Positions 5,348-15,497 of a DNA stretch of 64,000 bases are shown in pieces. Made by a program: the position numbers and the translations under genes. The stretch comes from Candidatus Aldehydirespirator sp. (GTDB lineage Bacteria > Actinomycetota > Acidimicrobiia > Acidimicrobiales > Aldehydirespiratoraceae). How positions within the stretch are numbered: position 1 is the stretch's first letter; each line of letters starts with the position of its first letter. The notes beneath the pieces were generated by a model, which was not told the origin of the DNA, did not search any database, and saw only the letters and a list, made by a program, of their open reading frames with translations. The DNA lies in assembly GCA_965220645.1 (NCBI GenBank), contig OZ244836.1, positions 2,112,237 to 2,176,236 of the forward strand. Direction: 5' to 3'.

Positions 5348-7063
5348 TGTGCTGTCCCGGTACATGCTTGACGCGTTGGCTCCGGTAGGTGTGTTACACC
5401 TTTGGGACGCGGGTCCGGTAGCTGGGCGACACTGGCTCCGGTAGCTGTGTTACACGTGGGTGGTCCGCATTTGGTGGTGCTGAGCCTTCTTCACTTGTGA
5501 CGGCCTGGTCGTCACATGGGAGGGGGTCGTCGTGTTGGTGGAGCTCGGTGTGGTGGAGCAGCGGCATGCGGCGGTGTTGGAGGTGTTGCGCGACGGCGCT
5601 GCGGTGTCTGAGGTGGCACTGCGGTTCGGGGTGACCCGCCAGACGGTGCATCGGTGGCTCAGGCGGTATGCGCAGCGGGGTTTGGCGGGGTTGGCGGATT
5701 CGTCGCCGCGTCCGGGTTCGTGTCCGCACCAGATGCCGCCGGAGGTGGAGGCGCTGGTGGTGGGGTTGCGGCGTGAGAATCCGGGGTGGGGGCCGCGCAC
5801 GTTGTTGTTCGGGCTCGAGGCGCGCGGTGTTCAGCCGTTGCCGGGGCGCTCGTCGGTGTATCGCTGTTTGGTGCGCCATGGGCTGATCCAGCCGCAGGCC
5901 CGCCGTCGCAAGAGATCCGACTACAGGCGTTGGGAGCGCAGCCGGGCGATGGAGCTGTGGCAGATGGATGTGGTGGGCGGGGTGATGCTTGCTGACGGCT
6001 CCAAGGCGTCGATCGTGACCGGGATCGATGACCATTCGCGGTTCGCGGTGTCTGCTTTTGTGGTTGAGCGGGCGACGTCTCGCCCGACGTGTGACGCGCT
6101 GGCGGCGGCGATGCGGGCGTGGGGGGTGCCTGATCAGGTCCTGACCGACAATGCGAAGGTGTTCACGGGCCGGTTCGGGCCCAGCGCCGGCGGTGAGGTG
6201 CTCTTTGATCGGATCTGCAGAGAGAACGGGATCGGGCACCTGTTGACCGCTCCTCGGTCGCCGACGACCACGGGCAAGGTCGAGCGGTTCCACAAGACGC
6301 TTCGACAGGAGTTCCTCACAGGCAAGGTCTTCGAGTCCATCGCAGACGCCCAGGCGCAGCTGGACGGCTGGGTGCGTCACTACAACTTCGAGCGCCGCCA
6401 CCAGGGCATCGGCGACGTGGTGCCGTGGGAGCGGTTCCGCCTAGTCGTCGAGGACCGCCCCGCCGTGCCCGCACGGCCGGCTGCGCCCCAGCTGCCGCAG
6501 GCCCCTACACAACCGTCGGCGACTCGCAAGGTGAGCCGCTCGGGCAAGATCAGCTTCGCAGCCCAGCAATATGCGGTCGGTGTGTGGCTCGCGGGTGAGA
6601 CCGTGGAGGTCACGGTGGACGCGGGGCTGGTCACGATCAGCCACCGCGGCGTCGTGGTAGCCACCCACGCCCAGCGCCACACTCCCGCGAAGGGGGTCAA
6701 GGCTCTGCGCCGCAAACCCAGACCCCTGCGCAGTGCGAGGCCGCGTCAGCCGACGGTGGGCCAGGTGGTGACCCGCAAAGTCGACTCGTCGGGCTGCGTT
6801 TCGTTCGCGGGGGTCAGCTACCGCGCCGGCAGCTCTCATCGGGGCCGCCAGGTCCAGGTCGCCATCGTCGACAACAGCGTGGAGATCACAGCCGGTGGGG
6901 AGGTGCTGCGGGTGCATCCGATCCGCCATGACCGCAGCCGAGAGCACGGCGCGTTCGCCAACGCCGGCGGCCGCCCGTCGCGCATAAACGCCGCCTGAAA
7001 CCTGCGCCAACCTGTAACGCAGCTACCGGAGCCAGCCTGTAACACGGGTACCGGAACTTGACA
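5348..7063 (+). mobile_element. IS481-family insertion sequence (~1.7 kb)
   Basis: Single DDE transposase ORF with termini TGT...ACA. Imperfect subterminal inverted repeats on both ends share CCGGTAC and TGGCTCCGGTAG..GTTACA. Flanked by a 14-bp direct repeat. Confidence 0.8.
5532..6998 (+). CDS. IS481-family DDE transposase (integrase core domain)
   Basis: N-terminal HTH (VSEVALRFGVTRQTVHRWLRRY). DDE triad context WQMDV / LTDNAKVF / ERFHKTLRQE. Typical IS481 N-terminus. Confidence 0.9.
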   Translation: MLVELGVVEQRHAAVLEVLRDGAAVSEVALRFGVTRQTVHRWLRRYAQRGLAGLADSSPRPGSCPHQMPPEVEALVVGLRRENPGWGPRTLLFGLEARGVQPLPGRSSVYRCLVRHGLIQPQARRRKRSDYRRWERSRAMELWQMDVVGGVMLADGSKASIVTGIDDHSRFAVSAFVVERATSRPTCDALAAAMRAWGVPDQVLTDNAKVFTGRFGPSAGGEVLFDRICRENGIGHLLTAPRSPTTTGKVERFHKTLRQEFLTGKVFESIADAQAQLDGWVRHYNFERRHQGIGDVVPWERFRLVVEDRPAVPARPAAPQLPQAPTQPSATRKVSRSGKISFAAQQYAVGVWLAGETVEVTVDAGLVTISHRGVVVATHAQRHTPAKGVKALRRKPRPLRSARPRQPTVGQVVTRKVDSSGCVSFAGVSYRAGSSHRGRQVQVAIVDNSVEITAGGEVLRVHPIRHDRSREHGAFANAGGRPSRINAA

Positions 7064-7077
7064 TCTGATATTGGGAC
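7064..7077. repeat. Right copy of the IS481 target-site duplication TCTGATATTGGGAC
   Basis: Identical to 5334-5347. Its last 6 nt (TGGGAC) are also the first 6 nt of the island att repeat. Confidence 0.75.
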
Positions 7078-7089
7078 GTGGAGCTAAGG
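7072..7089. repeat. attL-type direct repeat TGGGACGTGGAGCTAAGG of the tRNA-Ala island
   Basis: Exact 18-mer repeated at 15418-15435, where it overlaps the tRNA-Ala 3' end. Confidence 0.8.
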
Positions 7090-7441: not shown

Positions 7442-8182
7442 CTAGGACCGATACCCCTCAAGCGCATAAGGGTTGAGAAACTGGCGCCCCCAGAGCCGTT
7501 CCTCGTCGGCGTGGCTGGTTGCGGCGATGTCGCAGATCTCGTGCCAGTGGGCGTGGATCGCGGCGACTTGTTGGTCGACGATCTCCTTGGCCTGGTGGGC
7601 GGTCAGGTGGTAGCGCCCAGCGTGCGCGACACAGCGCGCGACCTGGCTCAGGCGGTCCCCGTCGGGTCCGAAGGCCATCGCTTGGGCGGCCTCTCCGCCG
7701 GCGCGGGGCTGTGGGCAGATGTCGTATGCCGGCGTGAGCGTCAGATCCGCGCCGTCCCAGAAGGCGGATTGGTTGCGGGCGTGGTCGTCGGTGTTGCCGA
7801 CGAGGATGTTGAAGACGATGCGCGAGAACATCTCCCGCAGCGTCGCGTCAGCGTCGGTGAAGCGCGCCCGGATCTGGTGGGCCAGGTCGGCATAGGTCGC
7901 GTAGCGGCCTGCGATGCCGTATGCGTCGTGTCGTTGCAGGATGGTCACTGCCGAGACCATCATCCGTCGAGCGCCGTGGCGGGTTCGATCGAATCGCTCC
8001 ACCATGAGAACCTCTCGGCCGAGCGCCTTCTCAAGTTCGACGGGGGCGGCGTCGATCCCAGCACGGCGCGCCAGTTCCATGGCGATGTACTCGGCCTTTG
8101 AACCACGGTGAAGCGCCGCTCGGCCGTTCGTCGTGGCCGAAGAAGTGCCCGTGCTCCGCTCTATTAATGACAGATATGGCAA
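7442..8182 (-). CDS. HipA-like Ser/Thr kinase, C-terminal domain only (probably an N-terminally truncated remnant)
   Basis: HipA_C hallmarks: VERFDR, catalytic loop VGNTDDHARNQS, AYDICP. Only 246 aa, so it lacks the N-terminal domain and P-loop region of ~440-aa HipA. An AT-rich junction lies directly upstream. Confidence 0.7.
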   Translation of the reverse strand: MPYLSLIERSTGTSSATTNGRAALHRGSKAEYIAMELARRAGIDAAPVELEKALGREVLMVERFDRTRHGARRMMVSAVTILQRHDAYGIAGRYATYADLAHQIRARFTDADATLREMFSRIVFNILVGNTDDHARNQSAFWDGADLTLTPAYDICPQPRAGGEAAQAMAFGPDGDRLSQVARCVAHAGRYHLTAHQAKEIVDQQVAAIHAHWHEICDIAATSHADEERLWGRQFLNPYALEGYRS

Positions 8183-8215: not shown

Positions 8216-9499
8216 GTGGCGCGCTTGGAGGAGCGGTTCTGGGATTCACAGACGTGGGTGTCGCGCCGGCTGGGGCCTGGTGATGATCCGTCGGGGATCT
8301 TTGGGGCGTTCGTGCCGGATCGGCTCTGTGGATGGTCGCCGACGCTTGCCTCGCGCACTTGGCAGCACACTCGGCTCGCTGAGGACACCGCCAAGGCAGC
8401 TTGCGAGGCGGTGGGTTCTGACGCCATGGGGCATGGGCATTGGCTGCTGGTGCGCCTTGAGAGTGCTGCCTCGAGCCTCATCGAGGGGGTGCAGGTCTCG
8501 CCTCGGCGGCTGGCGCTGGCGGAAGCCGAGATGACCCTGGTCGGCCGAACGCCGCAGCCGCTGGAGTTGGAGGCGATCGGTGATGTAGCCGCCATCGAGC
8601 ACGCTTTGCGTATCGGGGCGGGCTCAGAGCCGGTGACGGTTGAGGATCTGTGTGCGATTCATCGCAGCTTGATTGGTGACGATCCGATCGCCGGTGAGAT
8701 CCGCACCGCTCAGAACTGGATCGGAACCGGATACTCGACGCCGTTGCGGGCCGTGTTCGTGCCGCCACCGCCGGAGCGGGTGCCGGAGTTGGTTGAGGAT
8801 CTGGTCGCTTCGATCAACGAGGACGGACATCCTCCGCTGGTGCACGCCGCGATGGTGCACGCCCAGTTCGAGACGATCCATCCCTTCGCGGACGGCAACG
8901 GCCGCACCGGCCGCGCTGTGATCCAGTTGATGCTGCGCCGAAGGGGCCTGACCACTTCGGCGCTGCCGTTGAGCACGTCTTTGGTGTTTCAACACGCCCG
9001 TTTCTACATCGGCGCCCTCAACGGTGCCCGCGTCGTGTGTGCCGCTGATGACCCGCAGCGCTCAGATGCGCTTGTGGAGTGGGTCATGCTGCTTGCTGAC
9101 GCTGTCCAAACGGCGGCGAGGTACGCCGCTGAAATCGCGTGTGAGGTTGCCGCGATCGGGCACCTCTGGCAAGACCTGCTCACCGACGCGAGCCGTCGCC
9201 ATGGCCACACCACCGCGCGCCTGCTCGATGTGCTCGCGTCTTTTCCGATGCTCACCGTCAAGTGTGCTGCTGAGGTGCTGGGCGCTGATGAGCGCACCAC
9301 CAGGCGCGCCGTCCAGAGACTCTGCGATGCCACCATCCTCGCCCAAGCGGGCACCAGCAAGCGCAACCGCGTCTTTGAGGCCACCGACATCATCGACCTC
9401 CACAACGACAACGTCACCATCAATCCCAGCGGATGGCAGATGGGGCGCCCGCAACGGCGCTGGAACCGCCGACTCGACCACCCCCCGGCACCGGCTTGA
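8216..9499 (+). CDS. Fic family protein (class II, intramolecular inhibitory helix)
   Basis: Canonical Fic motif HPFADGNGRTGR (H222). SSLIEG matches (S/T)xxxE(G/N) about 130 residues upstream. FGAFVPDRL-type N-terminus. Confidence 0.9.
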   Translation: MARLEERFWDSQTWVSRRLGPGDDPSGIFGAFVPDRLCGWSPTLASRTWQHTRLAEDTAKAACEAVGSDAMGHGHWLLVRLESAASSLIEGVQVSPRRLALAEAEMTLVGRTPQPLELEAIGDVAAIEHALRIGAGSEPVTVEDLCAIHRSLIGDDPIAGEIRTAQNWIGTGYSTPLRAVFVPPPPERVPELVEDLVASINEDGHPPLVHAAMVHAQFETIHPFADGNGRTGRAVIQLMLRRRGLTTSALPLSTSLVFQHARFYIGALNGARVVCAADDPQRSDALVEWVMLLADAVQTAARYAAEIACEVAAIGHLWQDLLTDASRRHGHTTARLLDVLASFPMLTVKCAAEVLGADERTTRRAVQRLCDATILAQAGTSKRNRVFEATDIIDLHNDNVTINPSGWQMGRPQRRWNRRLDHPPAPA

Positions 9500-9586: not shown

Positions 9587-10504
9587 ATGCAGTCGCGGCC
9601 GCTGTCATCGGGCAGCTACGAGTTCCTCAAGCGCTTCGTGTTCGGGTCCGAGCGCGCCTGGAACAACGACGCCGCCGTGGGCGACGACGCAGTGGCACGG
9701 GTGCTGCTGTTGGGCGACATCCACGACAACAGCCGCGTGTTCGAGGTGGCCCAGCAGGCCGCTGTCGACGAGGGCTGCGATGTGTTGGTTCAGGTGGGGG
9801 ACTTCTGGTTGCAGGACTCCACATGGCGCGGCTTCGCGCCCGAAGAGGCGGAGCTGATGTGGGCCGCGGTGCATTCGCCGTTACCGGTTGTGGTGGTGGA
9901 CGGCAACCACGAGGTGTGGCCCTGCCTGACGGGATTCCTGCACCGCCCCGAGACTCTCGCCGCTCTACGTCACCACCAGCCGCTGCATCTAGCCGGCTCG
10001 CTGTGGTGGGCTGACCGTGGCAGCACCTGGACATGGTCCAGCCGGCGCTTCGGCGCGCTCGGAGGCACCGTCTCCCCCGACAAGTGGATCCCCGCAGCCG
10101 CAAGGTACCGCTGGGATGAGGAGACCACCACCCAAGAAGACCTCGACCGGCTCATCGACAACACACCCGACGGCCTTGACGTGCTCGTCTGCCACGACGC
10201 GCCTGCCGCCACCCGAGGGTTGGTGAGCGGGTTGCCGTGGAAGATGCCCACGGGCCTCGAACGCCGGGCTGAAGCGGTGCGCGAACTGCTGCAGGAGGCT
10301 GTCGACGCGACCATGCCCGCTTTGGTGTTCCACGGGCATTGGCACCAACAGAACCGCTGCATCATCAACCGCGGCGCCACCGAAGTAGTAGGCCTAGCAG
10401 CCGACGGAGACAGCGGCTGCGCTGCTGTGCTGTCGGTCAGGGACCTGCAAGCCCGCTACGTCGACATCTTCGGCAGAGCCACTCAGGCACGCCTCGGCAT
10501 CTAG
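9587..10504 (+). CDS. Metallophosphoesterase (calcineurin-like)
   Basis: Motifs GDIHDN, VGDFW, DGNHE, CHDAP, GHWH appear in the canonical order. Confidence 0.75.
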   Translation: MQSRPLSSGSYEFLKRFVFGSERAWNNDAAVGDDAVARVLLLGDIHDNSRVFEVAQQAAVDEGCDVLVQVGDFWLQDSTWRGFAPEEAELMWAAVHSPLPVVVVDGNHEVWPCLTGFLHRPETLAALRHHQPLHLAGSLWWADRGSTWTWSSRRFGALGGTVSPDKWIPAAARYRWDEETTTQEDLDRLIDNTPDGLDVLVCHDAPAATRGLVSGLPWKMPTGLERRAEAVRELLQEAVDATMPALVFHGHWHQQNRCIINRGATEVVGLAADGDSGCAAVLSVRDLQARYVDIFGRATQARLGI

Positions 10505-10546
10505 CAGAATGGTAGGCAGGAAGGCTCAGATGGCTAGTGGTGACAC

Positions 10547-11104
10547 ATGTTGAAACGATCTGAGCGAAGGACGATTGCCGCTGAGCGTGAAGAGCAGATC
10601 ATCGAGAACATCCACTCCAACCTGTGGAATGATGACAAGAATGACATCAAGGATGACCTGACCTACGGGGAGGCACTCCTCGAACAATACAAGTTGTATG
10701 TGGAGCTTGCTGACCGCGTGAGTCAACGTCGTGGCGTAGCAAACAGTTTCTTTCTCTTGGTTAACTCCTCAGCAGTTGTGATTCTTGGGAGTCTGGGCGT
10801 GTCGTTCAAAGCGGCATCTCCGTGGCTATTCGTCTTCCCTACAGTCATCCTGATCTGCATTTGTATAGTTTGGTTCTATCTAGTGCGAAGCTACAGCCAA
10901 CTGAATTCTGGCAAATGGAAAGTCGTTGGCGTCATGGAAGAACGGTTGCCTGCCTCCCCCTGGTGGCGAGCCGAGTGGCAAGCGCTAGGAGCAGGGAAAG
11001 ACCGTTCTCTATATTGGCCCCTGACTCATCTAGAGAAATGGGTGCCGCTGGTGTTTGTTCTGCTGTATGCCGGGATGCTAGCGATCGCCTTATGTGTAAG
11101 ATAG
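10547..11104 (+). CDS. Uncharacterised 3-TM membrane protein (candidate effector)
   Basis: 185 aa with a charged N-terminal ~65 aa. Hydrophobic helices FFLLVNSSAVVILGSLGV, WLFVFPTVILICICIVWFYLV and WVPLVFVLLYAGMLAIALCV follow. GC is visibly lower than the flanks. Family not recognised with certainty. Confidence 0.6.
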   Translation: MLKRSERRTIAAEREEQIIENIHSNLWNDDKNDIKDDLTYGEALLEQYKLYVELADRVSQRRGVANSFFLLVNSSAVVILGSLGVSFKAASPWLFVFPTVILICICIVWFYLVRSYSQLNSGKWKVVGVMEERLPASPWWRAEWQALGAGKDRSLYWPLTHLEKWVPLVFVLLYAGMLAIALCVR

Positions 11105-11129
11105 AGGCTGCAACACAGCGATAGAGAAG

Positions 11130-11540
11130 CTACGGGACAAGCTGTCGGATGCAACCGACAATCGAGTCAGTATTCCAATTGGCAATCAGGTCGGCGTCGT
11201 TACGTACCACGGACGAGACGTTCGTTTGTGCGTAAGGCTTTATGCCAAGTACGGGTTTGTTGAAGTAGCGCTTTGCGATATCAAGTTCAATGTTGATCCA
11301 CTTGCTATAGGTTGCATAGACCCCAGCGATCACGAGAACAATCTGAGTGCTGTTCATCTGGCGGATGATCGCATCACGTAAGGCTTGTTGGTTCGGAGCA
11401 TTGTGGATCGGATCGTCTTGTGGTACCGAATAGTTGAGATAGCTGAAGTACGACGCGTTGTCGAGCAAGTTGCAAAGACGAGTGTAGGCGTCTCCATAGC
11501 TCCAAGAATGACTAATGAATAGGTAACGGGTCTTGACCAC
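11130..11540 (-). CDS. TIR-like domain protein (DUF1863/ThsB type), paralog 1
   Basis: 136 aa with YLFISHSW, NYSVPQDDP, IVLVIAG, KWINIE(85)LDIAK, PVLGI. GTG start preceded by AAGGAG. Low GC. Confidence 0.75.
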   Translation of the reverse strand: MVKTRYLFISHSWSYGDAYTRLCNLLDNASYFSYLNYSVPQDDPIHNAPNQQALRDAIIRQMNSTQIVLVIAGVYATYSKWINIELDIAKRYFNKPVLGIKPYAQTNVSSVVRNDADLIANWNTDSIVGCIRQLVP

Positions 11541-11573
11541 TAGGGTCTCCTTTCCCTGTCTGCACTGTAGGCG

Positions 11574-11984
11574 CTAGATCGAATAGTCGCGCATCGCCCG
11601 AACGATGGAAGAGGTATTCCAGCCGACCATGACATCGGCTGCTTCTTGCACAGCGATAGGCGTGCGCCGGTGTCCTCGTGGATTGACGCCAACGATTGGC
11701 TTTCCGAGCTTCTGAGCTATCGATATCTCCTTCTTGATCCATTTTCGATGGTTGGCATACATGCCAGCCAAGATCAAGACACAGTTGACAGGTCGGATTT
11801 GGCGTCTAAGCGCCGCTGTGAGTTTGGCGTCGTTGTTCGCATCTAGGGGGTCGTCCTTTGGGACGGAGTAGTTCCGCGGCTTGAAGTTGGGCGTGGCTCG
11901 AAGCATTCTGACGAGTCGGTCGTACTCGGCGTTATGTGTCCAGGCGTGGCTGATGAACAGGTCGTAGGTCTTCAGTGCGGGCAC
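11574..11984 (-). CDS. TIR-like domain protein (DUF1863/ThsB type), paralog 2
   Basis: YDLFISHAW, NYSVPKDDP, CVLILAG, KWIKKE(86)ISIAQ, PIVGV. About 40% identical to paralog 1 by eye. I place the start at GTG 11984, which gives 136 aa and overlaps the upstream TAG as TAGTG. The ORF-track alternative is ATG 12029. Confidence 0.75.
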   Translation of the reverse strand: MPALKTYDLFISHAWTHNAEYDRLVRMLRATPNFKPRNYSVPKDDPLDANNDAKLTAALRRQIRPVNCVLILAGMYANHRKWIKKEISIAQKLGKPIVGVNPRGHRRTPIAVQEAADVMVGWNTSSIVRAMRDYSI

Positions 11985-12343
11985 TATGGCGTCCTCTCGC
12001 TCTTGCGGTTGTAGGTGGACAGCGCCCACCCCTCGGGGAGCAGCTTCCGCAGCGCCTCTAGCGGGTCTACCCGTTTGAGGGTCATCTTGATGTCCACGTA
12101 AGGGGTGGTGTCGCTCGCCCTTCTCGGGCTGGGGGTTACCCGTCCGTCTGGGCTGACGGCGAGTTCGACGGTGACCTGCTCGGCCTGGTCTGGCGCGGCT
12201 GCGGCGGCTCGGTCGATCTCGGCGGGTAGAGCGGTGGACAGGGAGTCGAATGACATAGCTGTAATGCTACCTCTACCCTCTGACGCTAGCTCCCAATCTT
12301 GCGAACTAATGTTCGCGTCGAGGGGATGCGGTGACGAAGGCAC
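11984..12343 (-). CDS. Small hypothetical protein, translationally coupled to TIR-like paralog 2
   Basis: 119-aa ORF, or 90 aa if it starts at ATG 12256 (MSFDSL...). Its stop TAG overlaps the GTG of the downstream gene. No motif recognised. High GC, unlike the TIR genes. Confidence 0.4.
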   Translation of the reverse strand: MPSSPHPLDANISSQDWELASEGRGSITAMSFDSLSTALPAEIDRAAAAAPDQAEQVTVELAVSPDGRVTPSPRRASDTTPYVDIKMTLKRVDPLEALRKLLPEGWALSTYNRKSERTP

Positions 12344-12478: not shown

Positions 12479-12508
12479 CCAAGATCGTTGAAATATCAAC
12501 GATCTTGG
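12479..12508. repeat. Perfect 30-bp palindrome CCAAGATCGTTGA-AATA-TCAACGATCTTGG
   Basis: 13-bp arms with a 4-nt centre. It lies in the divergent intergenic region between the small-ORF/TIR operon and the DMT-like gene. No T-tract follows. Confidence 0.8.
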
Positions 12509-13991: not shown

Positions 13992-15296
13992 TCAACGACC
14001 TTCGGGATTGTGCCCCGGCCCCTCATTCGTGCTCAAGCCCCACTCCCTCAGGAGCCGCGCCTCGCGTCGCTGCCGCGCCGCTTCTGGACCTGCGACGGTC
14101 GTTCGGCGAACCTCCACGTGCTTGGCCCACTGCTCCATCAGCACCCGCCGCTTCTCGAAGAGGTCGCCCCGCACGTAGGCGGCCTCGGTCTGGTTGCCGA
14201 TGCGGTGGGCGAGAGCGGCCTCGGTGACGGCCCCGGTGGTGTCGGCGCATTCGATGGCCCACGTCTTGAAAGAACTTCGGAAGCCATGCACGGTCGCGGA
14301 GATTCCGTGGTCCCGCAGCGCCTTCAGCAGGGTCTCCGCGGACATCGGGTGGCCTGGGCGCTGCGCGGAGGGGAAGATCAGTCCGCTTCCGTCCCGCACC
14401 CACTTGGCCCTGTCGAGCGCGTCCAGCGCCCCGGTGCTCAGCGGCACCCGGTGAACGATGCGCCGCTTCATGCGCTCCGCGGGGACGGTCCAGACCGCGG
14501 CATCGAGGTCGACCTCGTCCCAAATGGCCTTGCGCGCCTCGCCGGAGCGGACCGCGGTCAGCACGATGAAGTCGATGCAGGCCTTGGTTGCCTCGGTGGC
14601 CTGAGATGACCTGATCGTTGCCAGCGCGTCGGGCACGTCTAGATAGTGAACTGCGGCGAGCGGGGCCTTGGTGCGGGGCTGCGGGGGCAGGGCCGCTGAG
14701 ATCCTCTCGCCGGCGGGGTTGGAGTCGATGAATTCGTGGGCCATTCCCCATCGCATCACCTTCTGGATGCGCTGGCGGACCCGGCGCATGGTTTCGGGAT
14801 TCTCGGTCCACTTGGGTGCCAGGCATGCGATCACGTCACGGGGCTCGATCATGTTCAGCGGCTTGTCCCACAGCGGAGCGGCGTGCAACACGAGACTGTG
14901 CAGCCAGAATTTCGCGTGGTGCTCGCTGCTCCAGCGGGCCCGGTTGAGCGCATGCACCTCCCTGGCTGCTTCGCCGAAGGTCGGCGCCGGCGGGCGGTAA
15001 CGGCCCGTGGCGGGATCGCGACGGGCTTCGGCAGCCTCCCTGCGGTCGCGCGCGAGTTCCCGCGCTCGTGCGAGGCTCACACCTGGATAGGAGCCGAGCC
15101 CGATGTCGCGTCGCTGTCCCGCGACGCTGTAGCGGAGCACCCACGACTTCGACCCAGCGGGCGTCACATTGAGGAACAACCCGTTGCCGTCGGAGTGCCG
15201 GCCGGGCGCTCTAAGGCTCTTTACCGCCAACGCGTTGAGTCTTGAGGCCGACCTGGTGGCTTTGCTCACGCGCCCCCTTTGCCACATTCTTACCAC
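13992..15296 (-). CDS. Tyrosine-type site-specific integrase (P4-like, DUF4102 arm-binding N-terminus)
   Basis: GNGLFLNVTPAGSKSWVLRY N-terminal domain. C-terminal HGFRSSFKTW and AAYVRGD (catalytic Tyr region). Adjacent to the tRNA gene. Confidence 0.9.
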   Translation of the reverse strand: MVRMWQRGRVSKATRSASRLNALAVKSLRAPGRHSDGNGLFLNVTPAGSKSWVLRYSVAGQRRDIGLGSYPGVSLARARELARDRREAAEARRDPATGRYRPPAPTFGEAAREVHALNRARWSSEHHAKFWLHSLVLHAAPLWDKPLNMIEPRDVIACLAPKWTENPETMRRVRQRIQKVMRWGMAHEFIDSNPAGERISAALPPQPRTKAPLAAVHYLDVPDALATIRSSQATEATKACIDFIVLTAVRSGEARKAIWDEVDLDAAVWTVPAERMKRRIVHRVPLSTGALDALDRAKWVRDGSGLIFPSAQRPGHPMSAETLLKALRDHGISATVHGFRSSFKTWAIECADTTGAVTEAALAHRIGNQTEAAYVRGDLFEKRRVLMEQWAKHVEVRRTTVAGPEAARQRREARLLREWGLSTNEGPGHNPEGR

Positions 15297-15380: not shown

Positions 15381-15420
15381 CACCGTATGAGACTCTATGG
15401 CACTCTATGGAACCTTATGG
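15381..15420. promoter_or_regulatory. Four phased 10-bp direct repeats (caccgtatga / gactctatgg / cactctatgg / aaccttatgg), candidate integrase arm-type sites
   Basis: Exact 10-bp periodicity between the int start and the att core. The last unit runs into the att repeat. Confidence 0.4.
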
Positions 15421-15435
15421 GACGTGGAGCTAAGG
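15418..15435. repeat. attR-type direct repeat TGGGACGTGGAGCTAAGG
   Basis: Identical to 7072-7089. Positions 15425-15435 are the 3' end of tRNA-Ala. Confidence 0.8.
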
Positions 15436-15497
15436 GGAATTGAACCCCTGACCTCTTCCATGCCATGGAAGCGCTCTACCAACTGAGCTATAGCCCC
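15425..15497 (-). tRNA. tRNA-Ala (anticodon GGC)
   Basis: 73-nt cloverleaf. Acceptor GGGGCUA/UAGCUCC with G3:U70, anticodon loop AUGGCAU, T-arm AGGGG-UUCAAUU-CCCCU. CCA is not encoded. Confidence 0.9.

Follow-up and report, generated by a model that had tools for sequence, protein, structure and literature searches.

We analysed a 64,000-nucleotide stretch of the Candidatus Aldehydirespirator sp. genome (contig OZ244836.1, positions 2,112,237 to 2,176,236; hereafter the window) and focused on a compact four-gene cassette within it. The cassette comprises two tandem genes for ThsB-family TIR proteins, a small open reading frame (ORF) coupled to them and a convergent gene for a three-transmembrane (3-TM) protein of the 8xMP family. 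From its domain content and conserved gene order, we consider it probable that this is a Thoeris-type anti-phage cassette, in which the TIR proteins would make a messenger of the cyclic ADP-ribose (cADPR) type and the 8xMP protein would serve as a membrane effector. The features of the cassette are as follows.

10547-11104, + strand: gene for the 3-TM 8xMP protein, 185 amino acids (aa), from the ORF map
11105-11129: convergent gap of 25 bp between the 8xMP and TIR1 genes
11130-11540, − strand: TIR1 gene, ThsB-family TIR protein of 136 aa, GTG start
11574-11984, − strand: TIR2 gene, ThsB-family TIR protein of 136 aa, GTG start at 11984
11984-12256, − strand: ORF-D, small upstream ORF, 90 aa from the ATG at 12256

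The ORF map agreed with the coordinates and the 25-bp convergent gap reported in the initial annotation of this DNA. Two start sites can be read in more than one way. The longest ORF over TIR2 spans 11574-12029 (− strand; 151 aa), and the internal GTG at 11984 gives the 136-aa form; the longest form of ORF-D starts at a GTG at 12343 (11984-12343; 119 aa), and the 90-aa form is the one called on identical contigs. The proposed coupling of the small ORF to TIR2 is also present in the sequence, as the TAG stop of ORF-D and the GTG start of TIR2 overlap by one base, at 11984. Shine-Dalgarno (SD) sequences can be read ahead of the GTG starts of both TIR1 (GGAAAGGAGA) and TIR2 (GAGAGGA). The convergent gap is possibly a shared terminator; it contains a weak 5-bp hairpin (11107-11119) that is not above shuffle expectation, and scans for promoters and terminators returned no signal above that expectation. 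A perfect 13-nt inverted repeat with a 4-nt spacer, CCAAGATCGTTGA / TCAACGATCTTGG, lies at 12479-12508 in the intergenic region between ORF-D and the gene for a 347-aa membrane protein, and could be an operator or a terminator.

The three core genes differ in composition from their surroundings. In 300-nt windows, GC content is 0.48-0.55 over approximately 10500-12000 and 0.65-0.70 in the flanks, and direct computation gave 0.52 for 10547-11984 compared with 0.667 for the whole window. The GC dip noticed in the initial annotation is therefore real, although its by-eye estimate of 45-50% was slightly low. GC at third codon positions (GC3) is 0.59, 0.61 and 0.69 in the three core genes compared with 0.78-0.83 in neighbouring genes. 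ORF-D lies outside the dip, with a host-like GC of 0.64-0.66 and GC3 of 0.82. Cassette GC is low in all hosts examined (0.47-0.55 compared with 0.60-0.67), a pattern that fits horizontal movement of the three core genes as a low-GC cassette.

Both 136-aa proteins are ThsB-family TIR proteins. Pfam assigned them to ThsB_TIR (PF08937; E = 1.9e-12 for TIR1 and 1.2e-18 for TIR2) and TIR_2, with no match to a nucleoside 2'-deoxyribosyltransferase (NDT) family, and PADLOC ThsB profiles matched TIR1 at 6.5e-9 (PDLC00418) and TIR2 at 1e-17. The two proteins are 40% identical, as had been estimated, and contain the motifs quoted in the initial annotation, including the catalytic-type Glu, which is E85 in TIR1 (in the motif SKWINIEL) and E86 in TIR2. 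This residue is invariant in 24 aligned homologues, experimentally validated ThsBs included, and lies in an S.W...E motif that the validated ThsBs share; the TIR2 N terminus, MPxLKTYDLFISHAW, is likewise kept in homologues. The only sequence relatives in the PDB were MTH538 and an E. coli ThsB. An AlphaFold2 (AF2) model of TIR2, with a predicted local distance difference test (pLDDT) score of 72.5, matched the folds of MTH538, EcThsB (8wcf), EcThsB2 (8v6t), ThsB-Tad3 (9b7d), the SARM1 TIR domain and a B. cereus TIR, thus adding to the family assignments that uphold the ThsB-type identity first proposed. The same model also matched MilB CMP N-glycosidase, nucleoside 2'-deoxyribosyltransferases and DNPH1. 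Because both groups are matched, TIR and NDT proteins are not separable here by structure, and it is the sequence families that separate them; we rejected an NDT or MilB N-glycosidase identity for the TIR proteins, as the likeness is at the level of fold only.

A tree of the TIR proteins resolved two orthologous lineages. The TIR1 type lies proximal to the 8xMP gene, is 91-93% conserved and occurs also as the sole TIR; window TIR1 is 91-93% identical to the 8xMP-proximal TIR at two loci (L084 and L088) and 66-79% identical to the single TIR at two others (L089 and L098). The TIR2 type is distal, 79-80% conserved and orthologous to the first gene of Chloroflexi-type TIR-8xMP(-TIR) operons, with which window TIR2 shares 60-63% identity. 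Pairing with 8xMP is thus possible for each lineage on its own, and both are present in the window.

The 3-TM protein is no orphan but a full-length member of a curated family. It matched Pfam PF24838 with E = 1.7e-38 and 131.9 bits (cutoff, 30) over profile positions 1-135 of 136, and a profile search gathered approximately 3,460 clusters at 50% identity. The family is named 'Octameric membrane protein family (8xMP)' in Pfam, and homologues in NCBI and UniRef are called 'RipA family octameric membrane protein'; the putative octameric ring derives from this family annotation. An AF2 model of the monomer is all-helical (pLDDT 75). Searches of the PDB by sequence (single and profile) and by fold gave no match for 8xMP, and neither PF10028 (DUF2270) nor SLATT was matched by any of 18 family members with the threshold relaxed to E ≤ 10. 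Two segments, the N-terminal ~65 residues and the loop between TM2 and TM3 (~113-163), are rich in Lys and Arg, highly conserved and home to most of the invariant residues, and the positive-inside rule predicts that both are cytoplasmic. R57, R61, R62, K123 and R133 are among the invariant ones. Literature searches, within the library used, found no paper describing the PF24838/8xMP family or publishing its function.

To place the cassette in a wider context, we looked at how consistently TIR and 8xMP genes occur together. The identical 8xMP protein was found on contigs from European Nucleotide Archive (ENA) metagenome assemblies, and the closest genome match was to an Acidimicrobiia metagenome-assembled genome. 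Around close 8xMP homologues (69-84% identity), the convergent TIR gene or genes are always 25-34 bp away, yet the surroundings vary: a type I restriction-modification (RM) system (L084-L087), a DUF499 protein (L089), PIN, Vsr and methyltransferase genes (L088), or Ymh, helicase and toxin-antitoxin (TA) genes (L098). Around TIR2-type homologues of 60-64% identity, in Chloroflexi-type and other contigs, the genes are co-directional, in the order TIR-8xMP-TIR, with 8xMP overlapping the first TIR by 4 nt; one co-directional locus has TIR-8xMP only. The order TIR then 8xMP also occurs on plasmids of Synechococcus elongatus, Halorubrum (H. lacusprofundi) and Haematospirillum, with an overlap of 4 nt in Synechococcus and 46 nt (annotated) in Haematospirillum, and adjacent TIR and 8xMP matches were found on plasmids of Haladaptatus, C. 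perfringens and Natronosalvus, among others. In all, an 8xMP match was present in 23 plasmid records, and in at least 12 of these a TIR gene adjoins it. With the exception of one locus (L100), 8xMP adjoins a TIR at every TIR-anchored locus of the clade that was examined, in two gene orders and across several phyla, the taxa being Acidimicrobiia, Chloroflexi, cyanobacteria, clostridia, proteobacteria and haloarchaea. Recurrence of the arrangement in so many unrelated contexts, which was the outcome of the neighbourhood check suggested in the initial annotation, indicates that it is not due to chance. As the conserved partner of the TIRs, the 3-TM protein is most likely the effector, and the best candidate for that role.

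At two of the co-directional loci, a very divergent ThsB_TIR protein closes the TIR-8xMP-TIR operon (L099, 4919-5314; L102, 4987-5376). This protein (FISFDYDND...) is 17-24% identical to the window TIRs and is without the SH.W motif.

These contexts bear on a non-immune interpretation, in which the TIR-like proteins would be nucleotide or nucleoside N-glycosidases (MilB/NDT-like) accompanied by a housekeeping RipA-like membrane protein. The fold matches of the TIR2 model described above are compatible with it, as is the fact that RipA, a source annotation, is the only named relative of the 3-TM protein, the Francisella protein so named having been linked to LpxA and intracellular growth. However, sequence hidden Markov models lead to ThsB_TIR rather than to NDT families, one validated ThsB shares 47% identity with the TIRs, and the genes sit in defence islands and on mobile elements (RM, TA and DUF499 contexts, and plasmids). 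We regard a non-immune role as distinctly improbable.

The small ORF-D follows a narrower distribution. It has 33 homologues, mostly of 80-95 aa, in which no Pfam domain was found, and those at L084-L088, which lie upstream of the TIR pair in other genomic contexts, share 58-82% aa identity with it. L001, L089 and every co-directional TIR-8xMP operon examined lack ORF-D; given this absence from other forms of the system, it is a lineage-specific accessory gene.

The pairing of a ThsB-type TIR with a small 3-TM protein has been catalogued before. Yirmiya et al. (bioRxiv 10.64898/2025.12.03.692087, December 2025) scanned approximately 600 million proteins, described 29 putative Thoeris types and validated types V-XI. 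In Table S1 of that preprint, '3TM' is entered as the 'putative associated effector' in at least 100 rows (also in their Fig. 1C). Most of the rows read belong to TIR cluster 2734565194, where type VII and type VIII ThsBs are found as well. Compared with ten of these '3TM' rows of Table S1, the window TIRs show 45-61% identity to nine and 39% to the tenth (E 1e-28 to 1e-56), with TIR1 being 50-53% identical to '3TM' TIRs; by sequence, then, the window TIRs belong to the clade so labelled. On the Synechococcus plasmid, a PF24838 gene comes directly after a TIR that is 64.9% identical to '3TM' row 2676542066, and from this one, indirect observation the '3TM' partner may be PF24838. The initial annotation could match the architecture to no described system; this view does not hold, as the '3TM' configuration was already listed and Pfam has a curated family for the 3-TM protein. 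The architecture is thus catalogued as a predicted Thoeris type, with an effector that is not characterised. A literature search for a later paper naming or testing the '3TM' type found none.

To gauge the association of 8xMP beyond this clade, we examined 80 genome loci with more distant homologues (41-59% identity), mostly from actinomycetes. ThsB-type TIRs, sought with phmmer using the window TIRs, were present at one of the 80, the closest. A conclusion of 'no TIR linkage' drawn from that result was revised after Pfam TIR_2 domains were found in the neighbours: TIR_2 is the commonest Pfam family among immediate 8xMP neighbours (15 of 81), and an iterated local search identified an immediate neighbour with a TIR_2 domain at 18 of the 80 loci. 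With such TIR partners, and with a STING partner as well, the 8xMP family behaves as a shared module of nucleotide-signalling immune loci rather than as a housekeeping gene.

The partners of these distant 8xMP genes are varied. They include TIR-WD40 proteins of ~900 aa (L021, L028, L032, L034, L043 and L057), SIR2-TIR proteins (L071 and L006), STAND-TIR proteins with NB-ARC/TPR (L013, L023 and L059) and short TIR proteins (L035, L036 and L068). One of the 80 loci has a prok_STING neighbour: an 8xMP gene (L093, 5001-6600; L094, 1693-3292) is followed 8 bp on by a 359-aa prok_STING protein, in which the prok_STING domain covers residues ~201-338 and the N-terminal half has no assigned domain. 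Other close partners show no recognisable domain. Among them is the commonest single partner in the genome sample, a conserved Nocardia protein of 476 aa that has a TM region at its N terminus and matches no Pfam domain, located downstream of 8xMP with gaps of 11-19 bp (L004, L010, L011, L017-L019, L022 and L026); comparison of this protein with TIR profiles by hhalign gave a probability of <1%.

A broader interpretation can be built on this variety. 8xMP might serve as an all-purpose membrane effector, gated by the products of TIR proteins, that bacterial STING and at least five TIR architectures (minimal ThsB, short TIR_2, TIR-WD40, SIR2-TIR and STAND-TIR) have each recruited; this would make it a new class of Thoeris effector with a new ligand-binding fold. 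The same interpretation would take in the two ThsB lineages as anciently diverged sensors, parallel or heteromeric, and possibly an undescribed signal. We put it forward tentatively, as a possibility that we would not yet bet on.

The cassette lies in an integrative island whose other features are the following.

5532-6998: rve-type insertion sequence (IS) transposase, just outside the distal repeat
7072-7089: distal att-like direct repeat, TGGGACGTGGAGCTAAGG, an exact 18-nt copy of 15418-15435
7442-8182, − strand: truncated HipA_C gene (Pfam), beside the Fic gene
8216-9499, + strand: Fic gene; PADLOC SoFic, 1.7e-60, over nearly the full profile
9587-10504, + strand: metallophosphoesterase gene (Pfam Metallophos)
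island ORF: 347-aa membrane protein with no family match
13992-15296, − strand: tyrosine integrase gene (Pfam Arm-DNA-bind_3, Phage_int_M and Phage_integrase)
15418-15435: proximal att-like repeat, overlapping the 3' end of tRNA-Ala(GGC)
15424-15497, − strand: tRNA-Ala(GGC), the island integration site

The two 18-nt direct repeats, 8.3 kb apart, bound an integrase-bearing island of ~8.4 kb that encloses the whole cassette and, judged from these repeats, is integrated at tRNA-Ala. The match of the Fic protein to SoFic suggests that the island probably contains a second, stand-alone defence gene.

The enzymes encoded next to 8xMP have to be weighed as effectors in their own right, as the initial annotation had proposed either the small 3-TM protein or a neighbouring enzyme for this role. 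If the metallophosphoesterase or Fic were the effector, the 3-TM protein would be incidental. Both genes are on the same strand as 8xMP, with gaps of 87 bp (Fic to metallophosphoesterase) and 42 bp (metallophosphoesterase to 8xMP), and at two Mycobacterium-type loci a 531-aa Metallophos protein directly follows 8xMP (L024, 6384-7979; L025, 6381-7976). However, no homologue of the window metallophosphoesterase could be detected at the 80 8xMP loci, and the 531-aa protein is no exception, so this resemblance may be coincidental. Outside near-identical contigs of the same organism, no TIR-8xMP locus examined has Fic or the metallophosphoesterase; their GC3 is host-like, unlike that of the cassette; and Fic fits a stand-alone defence family. 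Lacking synteny and differing in composition, the two enzymes are rejected as effectors, and we give this alternative almost no weight. Of the two proposals, then, the small 3-TM protein stands as the conserved partner, and the neighbouring enzymes, which are not syntenic outside this strain, do not.

Sister contigs show that the island has been rearranged by IS elements. In one, an IS interrupts TIR1 and leaves a 94-aa remnant (L081, 8767-10316); in another, an IS parts TIR2 from ORF-D (L085, 6434-7630); IS elements in sister contigs also part Fic from the metallophosphoesterase, and at L097 the TIR is lost. The cassette is thus dispensable and a recurrent IS target. These disruptions could be taken as a sign that the copy in this genome is a remnant, inactive or in decay. 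We find that highly unlikely: all four ORFs are intact in the window, with good SD sequences, and the TIR1 protein is 91-93% identical across contexts compared with a nucleotide identity of ~80% over the cassette, suggesting selective constraint.

In the TIR-signalling interpretation that we favour, TIR1 and TIR2 would act as both sensors and signal synthases of the ThsB family. On phage infection, one or both would convert NAD+ into an ADP-ribose-derived messenger, which, by clade, would most likely be a cyclic ADP-ribose isomer, for example canonical cADPR or N7-cADPR. The messenger would be read at the cytoplasmic face of the membrane by a putative ring of the convergently encoded 8xMP/RipA-family protein, in which the two conserved Lys/Arg-rich cytoplasmic segments may form the ligand sites. 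Activated 8xMP would then breach or depolarise the membrane, and infection would be aborted. As each TIR lineage also occurs alone with 8xMP, the two are most likely parallel or heteromeric sensors for one effector.

The roles of the two components could also be reversed. The TIRs would then be effectors that deplete NAD+, with 8xMP as a membrane sensor, anchor or regulator, or as an independent second effector. In large TIR architectures such as TIR-WD40, STAND-TIR and SIR2-TIR, the TIR is usually an NADase effector, and it is beside large proteins of these kinds, and beside STING, that distant 8xMP genes are found. A caveat of Yirmiya et al. concerning unverified types, set out below, points the same way. 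The window TIRs, however, are minimal 136-aa single-domain proteins of the ThsB type and group with ThsBs whose signalling has been demonstrated in types IV, VII and VIII, all in one clade, and the small multi-TM proteins found next to signal synthases have proved to be effectors in all of the characterised cases cited. We therefore consider NADase effectors unlikely here, although not negligibly so, and retain TIR signalling to 8xMP as the preferred explanation.

Several points nevertheless weigh against that explanation. The '3TM' type was outside the 30 operons tested in the preprint, and its authors caution that the TIR of unverified types may be an NAD+-depleting effector (10.64898/2025.12.03.692087). 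The equation of '3TM' with PF24838 is indirect. 8xMP shows neither a sequence relationship to DUF2270 nor a solved or fold-matched relative, so that its ring and ligand gating are putative. Most actinomycete 8xMP genes have no recognisable TIR adjacent, and the dispensability of the cassette, disrupted by IS elements in sister contigs, belongs on the same side.

Because the pairing was already listed as a predicted Thoeris type, our findings refine a prediction and open no new field, and the practical gain is modest. What is added is a probable effector family (PF24838), a TIR pair drawn from two lineages, an accessory small ORF, the setting of a mobile low-GC cassette in a tRNA-Ala island, and the broad association of 8xMP genes with other TIR architectures and with STING. 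If the TIR-signalling interpretation is correct, PF24838 would be a second family of very small, ring-forming membrane effectors that respond to TIR-derived nucleotides, unrelated in sequence to DUF2270. The linkage to TIR-WD40, STAND-TIR, SIR2-TIR and STING proteins further suggests that many large actinomycete proteins regarded as 'NADase effectors' may also signal to a membrane effector. A compact four-gene cassette offers a test case for what the signal is (cADPR, N7-cADPR or a new molecule), for signal sensing by a 3-TM protein of about 170 aa without a known ligand-binding domain, and for the reason that two TIR lineages are kept.

Compared with known and predicted Thoeris systems, the window has the general features of the group, namely a ThsB-family TIR with the catalytic Glu and a conserved adjacent gene for a putative effector. 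Predicted '3TM' Thoeris is alike in pairing a ThsB-type TIR with a small 3-TM protein that has no known effector domain; the window differs in having two TIR lineages encoded convergently with the putative effector and a coupled small ORF, and the preprint assigns the 3TM protein no family name, structure, signal or phenotype.

Types I and II, with ThsA of the SIR2-SLOG and Macro-TM kinds, resemble the cassette in their ThsB-type TIR genes, often in several copies per locus. They differ in their effectors: as stated in the initial annotation, no SIR2, SLOG or Macro domain and no known ThsA was found in any island ORF by Pfam, PADLOC and NCBIfam scans. The same scans, from which the type III effector was left out, detected no Macro-TM, caspase-like, DUF2270, DUF6650, SLATT, CMP hydrolase-TPR, TIR-SLOG, ion channel or HIT hydrolase effector in the island ORFs.

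Type IV combines ThsB with the caspase-like ThsE and uses N7-cADPR as its signal. Its ThsB from E. coli 328 is the closest validated TIR, 47% identical to both window paralogs and with all invariant residues in common, and in B. cereus AH187 a TIR of the same clade is followed by a caspase gene; the difference lies in the effector, which is a soluble protease and not a membrane protein. Types VII (SLATT) and VIII (CMP-hydrolase) use canonical cADPR according to the preprint, whose Table S1 places the two type VIII ThsBs tested, and from type VII at least the Pseudohongiella ThsB, in cluster 2734565194 together with '3TM' TIRs. Killing in type VII likewise depends on an oligomeric membrane protein; 8xMP has no SLATT match, and the window TIRs are only 33-36% identical to type VIII TIRs.

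The best mechanistic analogue is type V, which likewise consists of a minimal TIR and a 3-TM protein of ~150-200 aa. Its effector, ThsF/DUF2270, is described in the preprint (10.64898/2025.12.03.692087) as a protein with three TM segments that is responsive to 3'cADPR, with a predicted ring in which the ligand would bind in positively charged pockets between protomers. This precedent weakens the argument of the initial annotation that the 3-TM protein is too small for ligand sensing. The effectors differ in family, PF10028 in type V and PF24838 here, with no cross-match at E ≤ 10; the example type V TIRs of Table S1 are in other TIR clusters, and the neighbours of those type V TIRs that we located on plasmids are not PF10028. 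As for the PF24838 8xMP/RipA family, its name makes no reference to TIR or STING proteins, and its linkage to both is a contribution of this analysis.

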